From assembly GCA_000965745.1 (NCBI GenBank), contig CP009479.1, positions 1,824,001-1,888,000 of the forward strand: 64,000 nt of DNA, given 5' to 3'. The DNA is from an uncultured archaeon (lineage in GTDB: Archaea; Thermoplasmatota; Thermoplasmata; Thermoplasmatales; Thermoplasmataceae). The notes under the pieces were generated by a model that saw nothing but the letters and a program-made list of their open reading frames with translations, made no database searches and was not told the origin of the DNA. Shown here in pieces: positions 25,392-38,406 of this stretch (position 1 is the stretch's first letter; the number at the start of each line of letters is the position of its first letter). A program made the position numbers and the translations under genes.

Positions 25392-25488
25392 TTTTTCCCT
25401 TTAAACCCGTTATTGTTTCTAGCGTTCCTTAAGTATATCTGAACAAAAAGGTTAAATAATGAACTATTGTTATATTTCTGGTGATAAT

Positions 25489-26181
25489 ATGCAATTAAAC
25501 GGAGAAGAAGATTTCTATTCACAGGCTTACAAGTTTGTCAAAAGGCACAACGCCACCAATAATGAATTCATTGACAGGTTTTCCAGGGGAGACATTTCGG
25601 ACGGAGAATTCCGTCGTTTCTCGGTTGAATTCTATCATTTTACAAGAGAGTGGCCCTCGATTTTGTCTACGCTGCTTGTGAACACCCCCGACGAGAACGA
25701 TGCAGCCAACCTTACTACGATCCTTGTATCCGAACTTGGCGATGACGACCCCGGCCAGAGACACGAGCTTCTATACAGAAAGTATCTCAGAAGCATAGGG
25801 CTTGACCCGGCTGAAATAGTAATGAAGAAGCAGCTCAACACAACTAAGTCTTGGCTTGACGGAATGAGAAAATACTTCGCGGGCGACCATTTTGAAGCTC
25901 TAGGGGCAGAATTCGGGCTTGAAAACATGGCAATTCCAATGTGGGACAAGTTGCTCGCCGGTTTTGAGAAATGGAAAGCATCCCATCCTGACTATTCGGG
26001 AATGGACCTTGAATATTTCACATTCCACAGGGCACTTGAGGAGAAGCATGAAGAAGCAATGGAGGATGTGCTCGGGAAGCACAAGGATGATGGGTCAGCC
26101 AGGGAAAAATTCATCACTGGTGCCAGAGGAATTTTAGATCTAGAGGAGAAGTTCTGGATCGGGCTAGGAAATAACCAGTGA
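25489..26181 (+). CDS. Heme-oxygenase-like di-iron enzyme (PqqC/CADD/TenA superfamily)
   Basis: ELG...H, GLE, FHRALEEKH; GGTGA SD before ATG 25489. Confidence 0.75.
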   Translation: MQLNGEEDFYSQAYKFVKRHNATNNEFIDRFSRGDISDGEFRRFSVEFYHFTREWPSILSTLLVNTPDENDAANLTTILVSELGDDDPGQRHELLYRKYLRSIGLDPAEIVMKKQLNTTKSWLDGMRKYFAGDHFEALGAEFGLENMAIPMWDKLLAGFEKWKASHPDYSGMDLEYFTFHRALEEKHEEAMEDVLGKHKDDGSAREKFITGARGILDLEEKFWIGLGNNQ

Positions 26182-32280: not shown

Positions 32281-32865
32281 ATGGTATCCGAAATACTCGT
32301 AGCAAGACACGGAGAAACTGATTGGAACTTTAATGGAAAATGGCAGGGGCATACCGACCGTCCACTCAACGAAAGAGGGCTGGAACAGGCGAGGGTTCTT
32401 GCTACCAAGCTCTCCTCAATCAGGATAGATTCGATATACGCAAGTGATCTTGCACGTGCAAGAACAACAGCAGAGATCATTGCCAGTGCTGTTGGCGTGA
32501 GTAATGTGGAAATAGACGCCCGGCTTCGGGAGAGGAATCTGGGGTCATTTGAAGGATTGTCGAGTGACGAGATATGTGCAATCCTGGGTATTCCGAGGCA
32601 CAAACTTACAATAAAGGAGATAGGGGCCAATGAAACCATAGAGAAATGGGGAAGTTTCGCCAATCGTATCAGGAGTGCTGTTGATGACATAAGAGCAAGA
32701 AACAGTGACAAAAGGGTCCTGATTGTAGCACATGGCGGAGTCATGGCTGCCCTGTCCATGATCATACTGAATGATTTTGAAACACCGAGAAAGTTCACGA
32801 ACGGAGAAATAATCAGGCTGTCATTCGAGGACGAGTGGTCCATTCAGTTTAGCGGCTCTCAGTAA
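32281..32865 (+). CDS. Histidine phosphatase (dPGM-like)
   Basis: RHGETDWN, SDLARA, LRERNLG, VAHGG. Confidence 0.9.
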   Translation: MVSEILVARHGETDWNFNGKWQGHTDRPLNERGLEQARVLATKLSSIRIDSIYASDLARARTTAEIIASAVGVSNVEIDARLRERNLGSFEGLSSDEICAILGIPRHKLTIKEIGANETIEKWGSFANRIRSAVDDIRARNSDKRVLIVAHGGVMAALSMIILNDFETPRKFTNGEIIRLSFEDEWSIQFSGSQ

Positions 32866-32928: not shown

Positions 32929-33345
32929 ATGCAGTGGAAGAGAGACGGGAACGATTTCATCGTCAAGGTGGAGAGAGGAGAGGATGTGAAGGGTTCCATA
33001 ATGGATGTGGTGCAGAAAAATAATGTTAAGGCCGGCTCAATCCTGTGGGCGGTAGGCATGATCCAGGACCTTGAAATAGGCTACTTCAATGGAAAGGAGT
33101 ATGAAAAGGAAAAATATGAGGGGCCACTGGAAGTTGTCTCTTTTCATGGTTCGATAGCAGAGAACGACCCCCGTATGCATATACATGTTTCCGTTGCTGA
33201 CAGAAGCCACGGTGTAGTAGGAGGCCATCTCTTTGAAGGTGTGGCGAACCCGCTTCTTGAAGTCCACATTCAAAAACTTGAGAATATTACTTTGAAGAGG
33301 AAGTACAGTGAGTCTTCCACCCTGAAGGAACTTGAAGTCAGCTGA
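32929..33345 (+). CDS. DUF296/PPC domain protein
   Basis: EVVSFHG, HIHVSV, GGHL. Confidence 0.88.
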   Translation: MQWKRDGNDFIVKVERGEDVKGSIMDVVQKNNVKAGSILWAVGMIQDLEIGYFNGKEYEKEKYEGPLEVVSFHGSIAENDPRMHIHVSVADRSHGVVGGHLFEGVANPLLEVHIQKLENITLKRKYSESSTLKELEVS

Positions 33346-34375
33346 TGGGGCTGTATATCGAAGAGATAACCTGATCCACAATCCCCTTATCCAGGGAGAG
33401 GCGGTTCAGTTCATGCCTCATTTGCTCCAGCCCAAAACCATGCTCAGAGAGTGTTTCGGTAACACCCAGCTTGCGAATCAGGCCCTGCACAAGCTCATAA
33501 CTCTTCCCTGAAAGTTCTGAAGTGTTGTCTCCCCTGAACCCAAGCCTGTTTGCAAGGTCTGACAGGCTTTTCTTCTTCCTTTCCATGCAATAGTAGGCAG
33601 TGAGGGGGAGAACCACAGCAGCGATAAGTTCATCTGGCATGTCCATGGATTTCTTCAGGCTGTTCCTGATAGGTGTCATTGGATCCCTGCTGACGGAGTA
33701 CCCGTCCTCTTTTGAGTACCATGATGACAGGAAGCTTTCCATCCTTGATTCCATGCTCTGTCCGGGAAGATTTATTATAAGCCTTTCAAGGGATGAAAGA
33801 AGCAGGTCCTCAACCTCAGTGCTTATGTCGTCCCTCATCAGGTTTGAGAATGTGTAGTCCATGACGCTCAGGCCTGATGAGTACCAGATGGAAGCGTCTG
33901 TTTCGACGCTTGATTGCGGGTCAAGAATCACGGTTTCGGGAATGAGCGATGCCTCAGAAACATGGTTGATTTCATCGCCAATCCTGTACTCGGCCCAATC
34001 TGAGAATGAAGAGACCGTCAGAGTTGTAGGGATTGCCATATGGTGCGCTCCGTGTGCATAATAATATTTCAGGAGCTTTGATGACCATATGACACTGGCA
34101 TCGCCGACGGAGATTATGGAGTCGCATTCTTTGTTCCTGTACGCCTCGGTAAGATGCTCCACTTCCGGGAGCGGGGGGCCGTATGTTATCTCCCTGAATT
34201 CAGAATACCCATTTTCCAGCTCTTCGGTAAGTTTCCTGTAGAAGTTTGTGGACGAGTATCCTGTAGTGGAGACGATGAGAGGGTTACTGCTCCCCTTCTC
34301 CTTGATATATTCTGCTGCTGATTTGACTGTGTCGATGCCGTAAATGAGCTTTCTGCCATTGGACTGGACTGGCAT
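33338..34375 (-). CDS. Degenerate iron-containing alcohol dehydrogenase / maleylacetate-reductase-fold protein
   Basis: IPTTL and P..VILDP retained; NAD-binding and metal-binding motifs substituted. Confidence 0.75.
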   Translation of the reverse strand: MPVQSNGRKLIYGIDTVKSAAEYIKEKGSSNPLIVSTTGYSSTNFYRKLTEELENGYSEFREITYGPPLPEVEHLTEAYRNKECDSIISVGDASVIWSSKLLKYYYAHGAHHMAIPTTLTVSSFSDWAEYRIGDEINHVSEASLIPETVILDPQSSVETDASIWYSSGLSVMDYTFSNLMRDDISTEVEDLLLSSLERLIINLPGQSMESRMESFLSSWYSKEDGYSVSRDPMTPIRNSLKKSMDMPDELIAAVVLPLTAYYCMERKKKSLSDLANRLGFRGDNTSELSGKSYELVQGLIRKLGVTETLSEHGFGLEQMRHELNRLSLDKGIVDQVISSIYSPIS

Positions 34376-34379
34376 GCTT

Positions 34380-35525
34380 CTACTGATACCAGGAAGACAT
34401 ATACTTCTTGTCCTCTATTTCCGATCCTTCCCTGGTGACTTTCAGTGGTTTGTAAGCTTCTACCATGACGGCTATTTCGTCTGTCTCCTCCTTCCCTATG
34501 GAAGCGTCGACGGCTCCCGGCTGAGGACCATGAATGAGCCCCCTTACGTGCAGGGTCATGGAACCGGGGCCTATGCCCTTCCTGCTCATGAAGTTTCCAG
34601 ATGAATAGAATAGAACTTCATCTGTGTCGATGTTGCTATGATAGTATGAGATAGGTATGGAATGGGGGTGAAAATCGAATTTTCTTGGGAGGAATGTACC
34701 GACCATGAAAGAGGGCCCGCTGAAGGTCTCATGGACGGGTGGAGGCTGATGCAGTTTCCCAACGATAGGGGCCATAAGGCTCACGTTTATTGTGAACGGG
34801 TACAGATAGCCATCCCAGCCAACAACGTCCAAGGGGTTTCTGTCGCGCTCCTCTGAAATGTAATAATCGTCATAATCCACGAGCACAGTATACCTTCCAG
34901 CGTCATTGGAAGGTTCCTCCAGCACAGGTACCCTTATGTCCCTGGTATAATATGGCGTGCCTTCCTTGAGCTGGCCGTACTTGTTCAGGTATCTCCCCGG
35001 TATTGAAATTCGTTCCCTTGACTCCAGGTAGAAAAATTCCGAATTCATTTCATATTCCGCAGAGTAAGTTGTGCCCTTGGGGATGTAAACATAATCGCCC
35101 TTGCTGAACCCCAGGCTGCCCAGAACGCTCCTCAAAACACCCTTTCCCTCGTGGACAAAAAGAAGCTGGTCCCTAAGCGCGTGCCTGAAATAATTCTCCA
35201 TGGGTTTCTCGGGTTTCACCGTTCCCATTCTTACATCATCGTTGAACAGGACTGGCCTCCTTCCTGAAACCAGATCCCCTGATGGCTTGAAGAATGAGGT
35301 CGAGAAGTGCCTGTGAAGAAGTTCGTCGGTCGATTTTTCATTTATGGGCTCCTTCATTACTTTCGTGACTTTCTTTACCCTTGTTGGCTCACCCAGGTGG
35401 TACAACAATGAATATGGGCCGTCAAAACCCTCTTCGCCGAATAACTCCTCCTTGTATATCCTTGACCTGTCAATGTAAGTATGCCTGCTCTCAGGCACTT
35501 CCCCCTGCTTTACATAATACACCAT
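34380..35525 (-). CDS. hmgA: Homogentisate 1,2-dioxygenase
   Basis: DVVGWDG, HQPPPVH, YYHSNIDTDE, IHGP. Confidence 0.93.
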   Translation of the reverse strand: MVYYVKQGEVPESRHTYIDRSRIYKEELFGEEGFDGPYSLLYHLGEPTRVKKVTKVMKEPINEKSTDELLHRHFSTSFFKPSGDLVSGRRPVLFNDDVRMGTVKPEKPMENYFRHALRDQLLFVHEGKGVLRSVLGSLGFSKGDYVYIPKGTTYSAEYEMNSEFFYLESRERISIPGRYLNKYGQLKEGTPYYTRDIRVPVLEEPSNDAGRYTVLVDYDDYYISEERDRNPLDVVGWDGYLYPFTINVSLMAPIVGKLHQPPPVHETFSGPSFMVGTFLPRKFDFHPHSIPISYYHSNIDTDEVLFYSSGNFMSRKGIGPGSMTLHVRGLIHGPQPGAVDASIGKEETDEIAVMVEAYKPLKVTREGSEIEDKKYMSSWYQ

Positions 35526-35533
35526 AATGTCAC

Positions 35534-36436
35534 CTACACAACTTTGCTGATTAATTTTCCCAGGGCGTCAGATTCAAACACGACTGTATCACCCCTGTTA
35601 AGCCAGCCATACTTCTCAGGGCCTAGTTCGAGGATACACCCGGTACCGACAGTCCCTGACATGATTACGTCACCAGGGAACAGGGTGACTTCATTCGATG
35701 CCCTCTCTATCATGTCTCCAAACCCCCAGTACATTGTCTTGAGATTGGCATCACTGTACTTCCTGCCGTTAACGTATCCCTGGATACTTATGTCAAATCT
35801 CCCACTTTTCTCTTCAAGGTCCCACAGTTCCCTTCCTGCGAGAATATGGGGGCCAAAGCTCGTCCCGAAATCTTTGCTCTTGGCCGGGCCAAGGTTGAGT
35901 TTCATCTCCTTCTTCTGCTCGTCACGGGCACTCCAGTCATTCATCAGGAATGCCCCGGCTATATGATCTGCTGCCCCGGTAGCTGAAATGTCCCTTCCCT
36001 CCTTTCCTATAACTACAGCGGCCTCGAGCTCAAAATCAAGCTGTCCGGTGTATCGCGGGTATCTCACATCCTCGCCTGACGGATACAGAGAGGAGGTTCC
36101 AGAGTAATAAAAAACGGGAATTTCGTACCATTCGGGAACCATTTCCAGTCCCCTGCTATTTCTGCCAGCCTTTACATGCTCTTCAAAGGCGTAGAAATCC
36201 CTGATCTGGTTTACCTTAGGAACCGGAATGTCATGCTGCCAGGGTTCCGGTACAACACCCCTTCCGCCTTTTGCGGCTTCAACAAGGTCGTTTTCATGGT
36301 GGAGGATTATGTCGTAGAACTGGTCTGATATTGCCTTCTCGTCAATCCCCATTATGGTGGAAATTGAGTGTGCGCTGCCTCCTTCGAAGATTACGGAAAG
36401 TGTCTGCCCATCTTTTCTTATTCTGCCGACCTTCAA
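35534..36436 (-). CDS. fahA: Fumarylacetoacetate hydrolase (homogentisate pathway)
   Basis: RDFYAFEEH, DFELE, NDWSARD, SGTVGTGC; operon context. Confidence 0.85.
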   Translation of the reverse strand: MKVGRIRKDGQTLSVIFEGGSAHSISTIMGIDEKAISDQFYDIILHHENDLVEAAKGGRGVVPEPWQHDIPVPKVNQIRDFYAFEEHVKAGRNSRGLEMVPEWYEIPVFYYSGTSSLYPSGEDVRYPRYTGQLDFELEAAVVIGKEGRDISATGAADHIAGAFLMNDWSARDEQKKEMKLNLGPAKSKDFGTSFGPHILAGRELWDLEEKSGRFDISIQGYVNGRKYSDANLKTMYWGFGDMIERASNEVTLFPGDVIMSGTVGTGCILELGPEKYGWLNRGDTVVFESDALGKLISKVV

Positions 36437-37525
36437 TCAGAGATTACCCCTTCTTGCCTGCTCCACTTCAATAGACTCGAACAGTGCCTTGAAGTTTCCC
36501 TTGCCGAAGGACCTTGCCCCCTTTCTCTGTATTATCTCATAGAAGAAAGTTGGCCTGTCCCCGGTTGGCTTGGTGAATATCTGAAGCAGATAACCGGATT
36601 CATCCCTGTCCACAAGTATCTTCAGGTCCCTGAGCTTCTCCACATTTTCATCTATTTCCCCGACACGCTGGTTCAGGGTATCATAATATATGTCCGGGGT
36701 GTCCAGAAACTCTATGCCGCGTTTCTTCAGGTCGGACACAGTTTTGACAATATCGTCGGTTTCAAGGGCTATGTGCTGAACGCCCGGGGAGTTGTAGTAA
36801 TCAAGGTACTCCTGTATCTGTGATTTCTTCATCCCGAGTGCAGGCTCGTTAATCGGGAACACTATCTTCCTGTCATTGTAATGGACAACCTTGGACCTGA
36901 GGGCCGAATATTTCGTTGAGATATCCTTATCGTCAAAGCTCATTAGCTGGTCGAATCCCAGGCCTTTGACATAGTAGTCAACCCATTTGTCCATAAGACT
37001 GTCCTCGACGTTTCCCACCGCGTGATCGACTTTTTTCAGGCCTATCGGGTCAAGCGTCCTGTCATACACCTCTTCAAATCCAGGCGGTATGCTGCCTTCA
37101 TATTCTGAAAAGTCAGTAATGGTATGGACTGTCTCGCCAAATGTTGGGAGGACTGCCTTCCTTATCCTGCCATTCTCCGTCTTCTGTTCCCTGACCTTAC
37201 CCGGCTTTACGAGGCCTCTTCCTTCAACATACTTTACTGTGTAGTCTATATTCGGCACAGCAAGTTCAACATCCTTGACCCCATCTCCGTGCACCCTCAT
37301 ATGATCGGCGATTGGCGACGAGGGATTGAGAAAAGAAGTGAAAATCATCCTGATTGAACTCTGTTCCATCAAATATGAAACTCGATCCCTGACACCGGTT
37401 TCAGGCCCTGAATATGCCCTGAACCTGAATCCCATGCCGTGTTCATGCATGAAGGCCCATTGCCTTGCCGATCCAACATAGAACTCGATGGTGTTAACAG
37501 AATCAAAGGCATTTTCATCTGTCAT
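36437..37525 (-). CDS. hppD: 4-hydroxyphenylpyruvate dioxygenase
   Basis: HGDGV, DHAVGN, PINEP, GVQHIA, LLQIFT, FFYEIIQR, FGKGNF. Confidence 0.95.
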   Translation of the reverse strand: MTDENAFDSVNTIEFYVGSARQWAFMHEHGMGFRFRAYSGPETGVRDRVSYLMEQSSIRMIFTSFLNPSSPIADHMRVHGDGVKDVELAVPNIDYTVKYVEGRGLVKPGKVREQKTENGRIRKAVLPTFGETVHTITDFSEYEGSIPPGFEEVYDRTLDPIGLKKVDHAVGNVEDSLMDKWVDYYVKGLGFDQLMSFDDKDISTKYSALRSKVVHYNDRKIVFPINEPALGMKKSQIQEYLDYYNSPGVQHIALETDDIVKTVSDLKKRGIEFLDTPDIYYDTLNQRVGEIDENVEKLRDLKILVDRDESGYLLQIFTKPTGDRPTFFYEIIQRKGARSFGKGNFKALFESIEVEQARRGNL

Positions 37526-37737
37526 ATATCAGTATAAGAGTCCTTGGATATAACTATTTTCTCTCTGAGGCCGTAAAATAGCGTGTTACAAGATAACAAG
37601 TGGCTATTCGATTCAACAACAGTTCCAAGGGACAAGAAACAGAAAATTGTCGTTGATGTGGGTTCCAGAGGTGCATTCCGGTCAATGTTGTGTCTGCACT
37701 ACTAGAAACAGATATCTATTTTCAACGAATATCCCCC

Positions 37738-38406
37738 ATGATATTATTGTCTGGCGAAATTTACATGATGGTGCTTTCCTACAGGTTCACCGATGATTTC
37801 TGGGTGCAGGATTCCTACAGGCAGAACAACATACTGAAAGCTGTTAACAGAATTGTAAATGATGAGAGCAATGAGCTCATACACCTAAAAACGTACAAGG
37901 GAATAAGGTATGACAGCGACGTTATATTCTGGATGTCTTCCTACAAACCGGAGGCGCTGACTGAGGTCAGGTTCAAGATAAACAGGTACTTCGGCGGATA
38001 TGCTGGCACGAACTACGGGATGATATCCCTTTACGAGCATTCGCCCTACCTGAAAAAAGATGGAGAGCTGTCGGATACCTTGACACAGGAGCCGCTGAAA
38101 TACTTTGTTGCATACCCTATGAGCAAACTTTCCGAATGGTACCTGATGGATTATGAGGAGAGGAAGAAGATACTCGCCGAGCATATAGGAATGGCGTCCA
38201 GCAGTCCTGAAAGCAAGGGAATCAGGTCATACACCACTTATTCGCACGGGCTTGATGACCAGGAATTTGTCGTACTGTACGAAGTTGAGTCGCTCAGTGA
38301 CTGGTCCCACGTTACTGCCAAGTTAAGAGAGGCCAGGGCAAGAAAGTGGATCATAAAGGAAACGCCCATAATCACTGGCGTTCTTGCGGATCTGGACAAT
38401 TTCTGA
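37738..38406 (+). CDS. Chlorite dismutase / coproheme decarboxylase family heme protein
   Basis: YFVAYPMSK, WYL, EH, SYTTYS.G.DDQEF; start approximate. Confidence 0.85.
   Translation: MILLSGEIYMMVLSYRFTDDFWVQDSYRQNNILKAVNRIVNDESNELIHLKTYKGIRYDSDVIFWMSSYKPEALTEVRFKINRYFGGYAGTNYGMISLYEHSPYLKKDGELSDTLTQEPLKYFVAYPMSKLSEWYLMDYEERKKILAEHIGMASSSPESKGIRSYTTYSHGLDDQEFVVLYEVESLSDWSHVTAKLREARARKWIIKETPIITGVLADLDNF

Follow-up and report, generated by a model that had tools for sequence, protein, structure and literature searches.

What does the fourth gene of a homogentisate operon do in an archaeon in whose genome no maleylacetoacetate isomerase can be recognised? The locus that raises this question lies in a stretch of 64,000 nucleotides (nt) of contig CP009479.1 (positions 1,824,001 to 1,888,000, assembly GCA_000965745.1, Thermoplasmataceae), hereafter the window. 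Four tightly packed minus-strand genes form the operon hppD-FAH-hmgA-X (Table 1), where FAH denotes a fumarylacetoacetate-hydrolase-family hydrolase and X the gene, or protein, in the fourth slot. The initial annotation described X as a full-length open reading frame (ORF) following hmgA after a 4-nt gap, with the fold of iron-containing alcohol dehydrogenases (Fe-ADH) and maleylacetate reductases (MARs), and assigned it to the place of the maleylacetoacetate isomerase. The sequence confirms the stop-free, full-length frame of 345 aa, its position and the gap. We propose, with a probability of roughly 0.5, that X of the window is a redox-dead pseudoenzyme or a neofunctionalised accessory protein, neither a reductase nor a decaying relic. 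The descent of X, the loss of its motifs, the selection acting on it and its strict operon linkage are observed, and of these we are highly confident.

X exhibits the two-domain Fe-ADH/DHQS-like fold, with a Rossmann-like alpha/beta domain at the N-terminus and a helical domain at the C-terminus. The Pfam Fe-ADH family matches the N-terminal domain with 62 bits and the C-terminal domain weakly, and no GST or MDMPI Pfam match is observed. The AlphaFold model, based on a 74-sequence alignment, has a mean predicted local distance difference test score (pLDDT) of 94.3. Foldseek places it closest to the maleylacetate reductases 3HL0 and 3W5S, with a template modelling (TM) score of ~0.8, and at TM 0.72-0.84 to many Fe-ADH structures, in agreement with the fold first assigned. 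The closest solved relatives by sequence are 9PH0 'MAR1' (407 aa, no paper found), followed by 3W5S and 3HL0. The best NCBIfam match is NF041833 (ErcA, alcohol-dehydrogenase-like regulatory protein), which reaches 60 bits over the N-terminal part only. As this is far under the cut-off of 550, X is not a member, and this Fe-ADH-family protein, named regulatory, is cited solely as an example of the Fe-ADH fold in a non-metabolic role.

Both the nesting of window X among intact orthologues and its best matches by sequence and fold in the PDB place its descent within the MAR subfamily (cd08177), which comprises PcpE, GraC (3W5S), MacA (3HL0) and HxqD (3JZD). In this subfamily, the first metal-ligand Asp is replaced by Asn or Arg, which gives a metal-free enzyme (PMC5125639). 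PcpE has a positively charged channel, the signature LHHKLCHTLGG, and two essential residues, His172 and Lys238 (PMC5741723). Window X has the two-domain fold of these enzymes but lacks the GGGSxxD loop, the His/Lys cluster and the signature, and the hallmark Arg is found in the intact orthologues (R170) and not in window X. 9PH0 is the nearest solved relative of both forms of X, with 58 bits to window X and 165 bits to the intact orthologue P0018. The motifs QHSP, R..DH, SH..G and IPHGITSC are common to 9PH0 and intact X, and none of them is present in window X. P0018 also gives ~90-96 bits to 3JZD, 3W5S and 3HL0. MaiA/GSTZ1 and the DinB-type maleylpyruvate isomerases, which hold a comparable place in classical homogentisate and gentisate operons, have a fold unrelated to that of X and depend on a thiol cofactor.

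The five motif changes reported initially (GDASVIW, PTTLTVSS at residues 116-123, SVMDY, the absence of His from residues 231-249, and PDE at residues 247-249) are all present. To assess conservation, 12 members of the degenerate clade to which window X belongs were compared with 55 intact orthologues. The motif loss is far beyond chance, because the clade has lost 39 of 52 columns whose conservation in the intact forms is at least 95%, often with 4-7 states among the 12 sequences. In the dinucleotide-binding loop, G92, G93 and D97 are invariant in the intact orthologues and exhibit 3, 5 and 4 states, respectively, in the clade. Position 170, an Arg in 55/55 intact orthologues, is a Ser in window X and takes the states G, S and E in the clade as a whole, while the His at position 174 is a Tyr in 11 of the 12 members. 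The conserved basic cluster of the cleft (H66, H126, K136, R170, H174, H234, K/R238 and H248) is gone at all eight positions, with D/E at positions 126 and 248. The mean isoelectric point shifts from 6.3 in the intact forms to 4.8 in the clade, and the mean net charge from -4.9 to -16.8. In the alignment, window X has Tyr174 and Pro235 where PcpE has His172 and Lys238. The complete loss of this basic cluster and its partly acidic replacement argue against the premise that X binds maleyl compounds, on which the isomerase and sensor readings of the initial annotation were built, but not against a subunit-type role.

Loss is not the only change in this clade, where about 40 columns have become newly conserved. 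Four of them are at former active-site positions (H66G, H174Y, G231D and G237R), D231 being invariant and R237 present in 11 of the 12 members; others are D134, D190-L-L and the RLGFRG motif, which is absent from intact orthologues. G91, S94, K100, P116 and ILDP are kept, and PTT has become PVVP in two members. All 12 diverged members are full-length ORFs, with 56 invariant columns common to all of them.

A word-indexed search with window X gave 11 close homologues (41-67% identity), and when 1.8 billion representatives were searched exhaustively with HMMER, no more than four clusters fell below 1e-30. P0019, the cluster that comes next at 23% identity, likewise occupies the fourth slot behind hppD, FAH and hmgA, has other genes around its operon and carries all canonical motifs. 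These motifs, GGGSV[IT]D, PTTLS[AS][AS]EFSHIAGY, [ST]G[IV]R[SA]LDH, G[LI]SHxIGK and IPHGITSC, are kept in P0018, in P0019 and in the sampled other X-bearing genera of the same GTDB family, and all are lost in the clade of the window. A GGGSxxD-type motif is also kept in five of six outgroup sequences. The intact archaeal orthologues agree with window X in length and in their slot behind hmgA, and the tree supports the orthology. They are 20-32% identical to window X, compared with 45-67% for the respective HmgA proteins. Identities of 22-29% are observed for degenerate versus intact pairs of X, whereas intact pairs at equal HmgA divergence are 38-57% identical.

Loci bearing the gene were scanned with an intact-motif query in one genome per species, which gave 374 loci, of which the best 80 were examined. 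The alignment used comprised intact forms only and was blind to other degenerate forms, a gap filled by the exhaustive HMMER search. Among these best 80 of 374 loci, hmgA is directly upstream of X in 65/65 archaeal loci for which upstream sequence exists, from Thermoplasmata and Bathyarchaeia, and the hppD-FAH-hmgA-X cassette is normally complete. The bearers include Cuniculiplasma, Oxyplasma meridianum, E-plasma, I-plasma and many Bathyarchaeia (loci L005, L006 and L026-L091; for instance L041, O. meridianum CP133772, 600631-611653), and in two loci checked hmgA and intact X overlap by 4 nt. The same arrangement is observed in 15/15 X-bearing genomes of a class-level sample. None of the 12 Chloroflexota homologues of intact X among the best 80 is linked to hmgA, and the Chloroflexota/Ktedonobacteria neighbourhoods checked (2-oxoacid dehydrogenase genes, TetR, metallo-beta-lactamase) gave no substrate clue. 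Two bearers of the archaeal cassette have other labels, L075 (DASPWZ01, Dormiibacterota) and L056 ('bacterium'). L075 clusters with Bathyarchaeia in the trees and L056 resembles Thermoplasmata loci in arrangement and identity, and the labels of these metagenome-assembled genomes (MAGs) are probably binning or naming errors.

The linkage at 65/65 intact loci argues that the fourth slot, as judged from sequence, is ancestrally that of a motif-intact MAR-type oxidoreductase, presumably a reductase, and not of an isomerase. The initial proposal therefore stands in part. A MAR scaffold deprived of its catalytic motifs has been repurposed, but the assignment of the slot to a maleylacetoacetate isomerase is unsupported, since sister genera and Bathyarchaeia have an intact MAR-type oxidoreductase there. 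The motif loss is confined to the genus-level clade of the window.

In the tree of X, which includes 10 degenerate sequences, these form one clade with a support of 100, nested among intact Thermoplasmata orthologues. The stem branch of this clade measures 1.59 substitutions per site for X, compared with 0.24 in the tree of concatenated HppD, FAH and HmgA. In the latter tree, the sister group of the genomes with degenerate X consists of Oxyplasma and Thermoplasmataceae MAGs, and X is intact in every one of them. In the closest degenerate pair (82% identical), the ratio of nonsynonymous to synonymous substitution rates (dN/dS), a rough value resting on few pairs, is 0.06-0.08 for X and 0.04-0.05 for HmgA. 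It is 0.12-0.13 for X in deeper degenerate pairs and 0.03-0.05 for intact X. Degenerate X is thus under purifying selection, looser than that on intact X but clearly not neutral, and the neutral decay considered at the outset does not describe this gene.

The linkage to hmgA has been maintained as well. The order hppD-FAH-hmgA-X is observed on every long-enough contig of the degenerate clade, with X directly after hmgA down to 41% identity and with spacers of 3-5 nt where coordinates are available. The partner enzymes of this clade keep every column conserved in genomes with intact X (127/127 in HppD, 48/48 in FAH and 89/89 in HmgA), and no specificity shift tracking the loss of X was found in FAH, HmgA or HppD of the degenerate clade. 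One clade without X exhibits a few column shifts in the partner enzymes, which are confounded with phylogeny. A query with an intact orthologue matches solely this locus in the genome, and no second, intact copy of X was found. An independent case of partial degeneration, P0017 from a metagenome contig (SRR31012007), shows GGNS, PTHPSGSAF, H234Q and H248M. In the tree of X it clusters with an intact orthologue from Thermoplasmataceae (support 94), and its terminal branch is long (0.72 versus 0.19).

Several members of the family manage without a fourth gene. Of the 33 other genomes of the family in the class-level sample, 27 have HmgA and 14 have an X orthologue, and the 13 sister genomes with HmgA and without X are all at least 94% complete. 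Seven neighbourhoods without X were inspected, all in sister genera (L107 to L113, from genomes G046, G025, G162, G176, G195, G134 and G237). Their operon has just the three genes hppD, FAH and hmgA, and the gene that comes next is unrelated and belongs to the Haem_oxygenas_2 family, encodes an aminotransferase or has a NUDIX or PCC domain. In L109 and L113, a class I/II aminotransferase gene, likely encoding a tyrosine aminotransferase, follows hmgA on the same strand. According to the operon tree, X has been lost at least two times independently in the family.

Because 13 sister genomes keep the HmgA operon without it, X is accessory, and the three-enzyme core persists whether X is intact, absent or dead. 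As this occurs with no compensating change in the clade, the idea of an isomerase slot is weakened; with nothing in the slot in 13 sister genomes, no gene is needed there for the operon to persist. The absence of maiA and of DinB-type isomerases, first noted for the window, extends to the whole genome (99.4% complete), where no match to maiA (TIGR01262), to MDMPI_N/DinB-type isomerases or to GST_N_3 was found. In the gentisate pathway, FAH-superfamily enzymes that hydrolyse the maleyl form directly, HbzF and the MPH of Sphingobium, are known (cited in PMC5658364 and PMC13669639). By analogy, direct hydrolysis of the maleyl form is a plausible isomerase-free route for the organisms considered here.

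The intact form of X is a candidate maleylacetoacetate reductase. It exhibits an Arg at the first metal-binding Asp position together with a conserved basic cluster, which is reminiscent of the positively charged channel of PcpE, and SH[NRQ]IGK where canonical MARs have HHKLCH. Maleylacetoacetate has the same maleyl head group as maleylacetate and is two carbons longer. The intact ancestor may have converted maleylacetoacetate to succinylacetoacetate through reduction of the C=C bond, and the FAH-type hydrolase would then have cleaved this product. Such a reduction would constitute a thiol-free yet dispensable route. In animals, the conversion of maleyl- or fumarylacetoacetate to succinylacetoacetate is a side reaction (PMC9360007). 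In the literature searched, we found no paper on a dedicated maleylacetoacetate reductase and none on homogentisate in Thermoplasmatales. A search for fused, longer forms of the intact orthologue found none, which is weak evidence.

These observations can be accommodated in one scenario. Ancestral X was a MAR-subfamily oxidoreductase encoded by the fourth gene of an archaeal hppD-FAH-hmgA-X cassette. At the base of one genus-level Thermoplasmata clade, a burst of change stripped X of its NAD(P)H loop, of its His residues and of the basic channel for the substrate, and purifying selection has since acted on X with a new set of fixed residues. Loss of the catalytic and cofactor residues of the parent enzyme together with purifying selection is what characterises a pseudoenzyme, and both are found here. 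An accessory role is favoured by a strict linkage to hmgA across spacers of 3-5 nt, by partners that have not changed and by the erasure of the dicarboxylate site. We infer, at slightly less than even odds, that window X is co-expressed with HmgA and serves the homogentisate module as an accessory without catalysis of its own, and that it acts through protein contacts or through a new ligand in the rebuilt acidic cleft rather than in the ancestral handling of maleylacetoacetate.

Several points weigh against this proposal. The reductase role of the ancestor is putative, as intact X lacks the exact canonical signature LHHKLCHTLGG and is annotated in databases merely as 'iron-containing alcohol dehydrogenase'. 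The partner, ligand and activity of an accessory X would all be putative too. Polar residues that have become fixed where catalytic ones once stood (Y174, D231, R237 and D134) would suit a new enzyme as well. Constraint is somewhat relaxed, with a dN(X)/dN(HmgA) of 1.5-2.7 in the degenerate clade against 1.1-1.4 for intact X; dS is near saturation, so that only the closest pairs are usable for the dN/dS estimates (YN00 and NG86). Finally, P0017 has no hmgA upstream and is flanked by PCC and histidine-phosphatase genes, so that persistence outside the operon is possible. This single observation suggests that erosion of X can go with lost operon linkage.

The same polar residues are what a rebuilt active site would show, and they speak for X being a new thiol- and cofactor-independent maleylacetoacetate cis-trans isomerase on a MAR scaffold. 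The lack of any maiA, DinB/MDMPI or GST-type match in the genome, the position 4 nt behind hmgA and a burst followed by purifying selection, compatible with neofunctionalisation, point in the same direction. We nevertheless consider this quite unlikely. The basic cluster expected to hold a dicarboxylate is gone and the cleft is acidic, and there is no new conserved Cys or obvious nucleophile, C84 being also present in the aligned intact Thermoplasmata forms. Moreover, the slot of the relatives with intact X holds a reductase-type protein and the 13 sister genomes keep hppD-FAH-hmgA without a fourth gene, so that the pathway of this family seems not to need an isomerase. FAH exhibits no compensating change, and direct hydrolases of the maleyl form are on record in the FAH superfamily. 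A broader version starts from the intact forms. These would be maleylacetoacetate reductases of an undescribed thiol-free reductive branch in Thermoplasmata and Bathyarchaeia, leading through succinylacetoacetate to succinate and acetoacetate. In the genus of the window, a single burst would then have rebuilt the cleft and given the protein a truly new activity within this pathway, perhaps cofactor-free isomerisation, perhaps a role as effector-binding regulator or as partner of HmgA or FAH. We regard this combination as improbable.

That window X acts on some other ligand or partner, outside homogentisate breakdown, and is merely a passenger of the operon would agree with the erasure of the ancestral substrate and cofactor sites, with the sister lineages that manage without X and with P0017, which persists away from hmgA. 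At least one unlinking would be expected over such a depth, yet X stays behind hmgA on all informative contigs of the clade, and we find a passenger role unlikely. Retention of an NAD(P)H-dependent reductase with an unusual mode of binding cofactor and maleylacetoacetate would be consistent with the fully kept fold, modelled with high confidence, and with the conserved G91, S94, K100, P116 and ILDP. An Asp or Asn at position 92 can take Gly-like backbone angles. Such an activity is nevertheless very unlikely, since G92, G93 and D97 vary in the clade, two members have PVVP instead of PTT, and the former catalytic positions vary freely, which is unexpected for a working site. In addition, a Tyr has replaced the His that corresponds to His172, which is essential in PcpE (PMC5741723). 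Least credible of all is a relic on its way to loss, its frame kept open by chance or through effects on operon translation or mRNA stability. At least two outright losses of X within the family, and a constraint looser than that on its intact counterpart, would fit such a fate, but dN/dS values of 0.06-0.13, full-length frames in 12/12 diverged members and some 40 newly fixed columns are at odds with decay. A redox-dead or neofunctionalised accessory protein thus remains our preferred reading of window X.

The features of the locus are listed in Table 1. The three partner genes are recognisable, the closest PDB relatives of the FAH protein being true fumarylacetoacetases and the PDB matches of the divergent HmgA being solely homogentisate dioxygenases (1EY2 and 3ZDS).

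Table 1. Features of the hppD-FAH-hmgA-X locus and of neighbouring genes (positions in the window)
Feature	Position	Strand	Remark
hppD, 4-hydroxyphenylpyruvate dioxygenase	36437-37525	-	Operon gene 1; TIGR01263 386 bits, cut-off 277
FAH (fumarylacetoacetate-hydrolase-family) hydrolase	35534-36436	-	Short, 300 aa; Pfam FAA_hydrolase 167 bits
hmgA, homogentisate 1,2-dioxygenase	34380-35525	-	Divergent archaeal form; HgmA_N above cut-off, TIGR01015 49 bits
Spacer AAGC	34376-34379	-	4 nt, hmgA stop to X start
X, degenerate MAR-subfamily (Fe-ADH superfamily) protein	33338-34375	-	Fourth gene, 345 aa
GDASVIW	34085-34105	-	Residues 91-97, replaces the dinucleotide-binding loop GGGSxxD
PTTLTVSSFSDWAEY	33986-34030	-	Residues 116-130, replaces PTTLSA[AS]EFSHIAGY; E123, H126 and G129 lost
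SGLSVMDY	33854-33877	-	Residues 167-174, replaces [ST]G[IV]R[SA]LDH; R170 lost
DPMTPIRNSLKKSMDMPDE	33629-33685	-	Residues 231-249, replaces G[LI]SHxIGKxxGxxxxIPHG; no His
RLGFRG	33530-33547	-	Residues 277-282, clade-specific conserved motif
PCC-domain (PF03479) gene	32929-33345	+	Converges on X; 3' overlap of 8 nt (TCAGCTGA)
Chlorite-dismutase/HemQ-like gene	37690-38406	+	Divergent from hppD
Histidine-phosphatase gene	32281-32865	+	
ORF, 249 aa	32094-32843	-	Antisense to the histidine-phosphatase gene; probably not a gene
Haem_oxygenas_2/TENA-family (PF14518) gene	25459-26181	+	240 aa

The PCC-domain gene is a constant syntenic neighbour across the family, including two genomes without X, in which it lies at most ~550 nt from the hmgA stop and, in L110, overlaps this stop. 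The pairing of the chlorite-dismutase/HemQ-like gene with hppD is also found in the close relatives L001 and L003. The translation of the 249-aa ORF is of low complexity and rich in Ser and Leu. Orthologues of the PF14518 gene (61-83% identical) are found at most ~6 kb from the hppD operon in 44 Thermoplasmata loci, in varied arrangements. In L006, L073, L077 and L078, the gene directly precedes hppD on the same strand; in L107, L108 and L112, which lack X, it comes straight after hmgA in convergent orientation. It may be functionally tied to the homogentisate pathway.

The fold and the parent family of X are known, but no paper in the literature searched describes the conserved archaeal four-gene cassette or its pseudoenzyme derivative, nor did we find there a description of the maleylacetoacetate step in archaea without glutathione. 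One operon exhibits three natural states, with an intact MAR-type reductase, with no fourth gene, and with a fourth gene that is dead but under selection, and this contrast makes the maleylacetoacetate question directly testable by reconstitution. X of the window would also provide a clean and datable case of the passage from enzyme to pseudoenzyme, on one branch and with unchanged partner enzymes, and such cases help to study why inactive homologues are retained.

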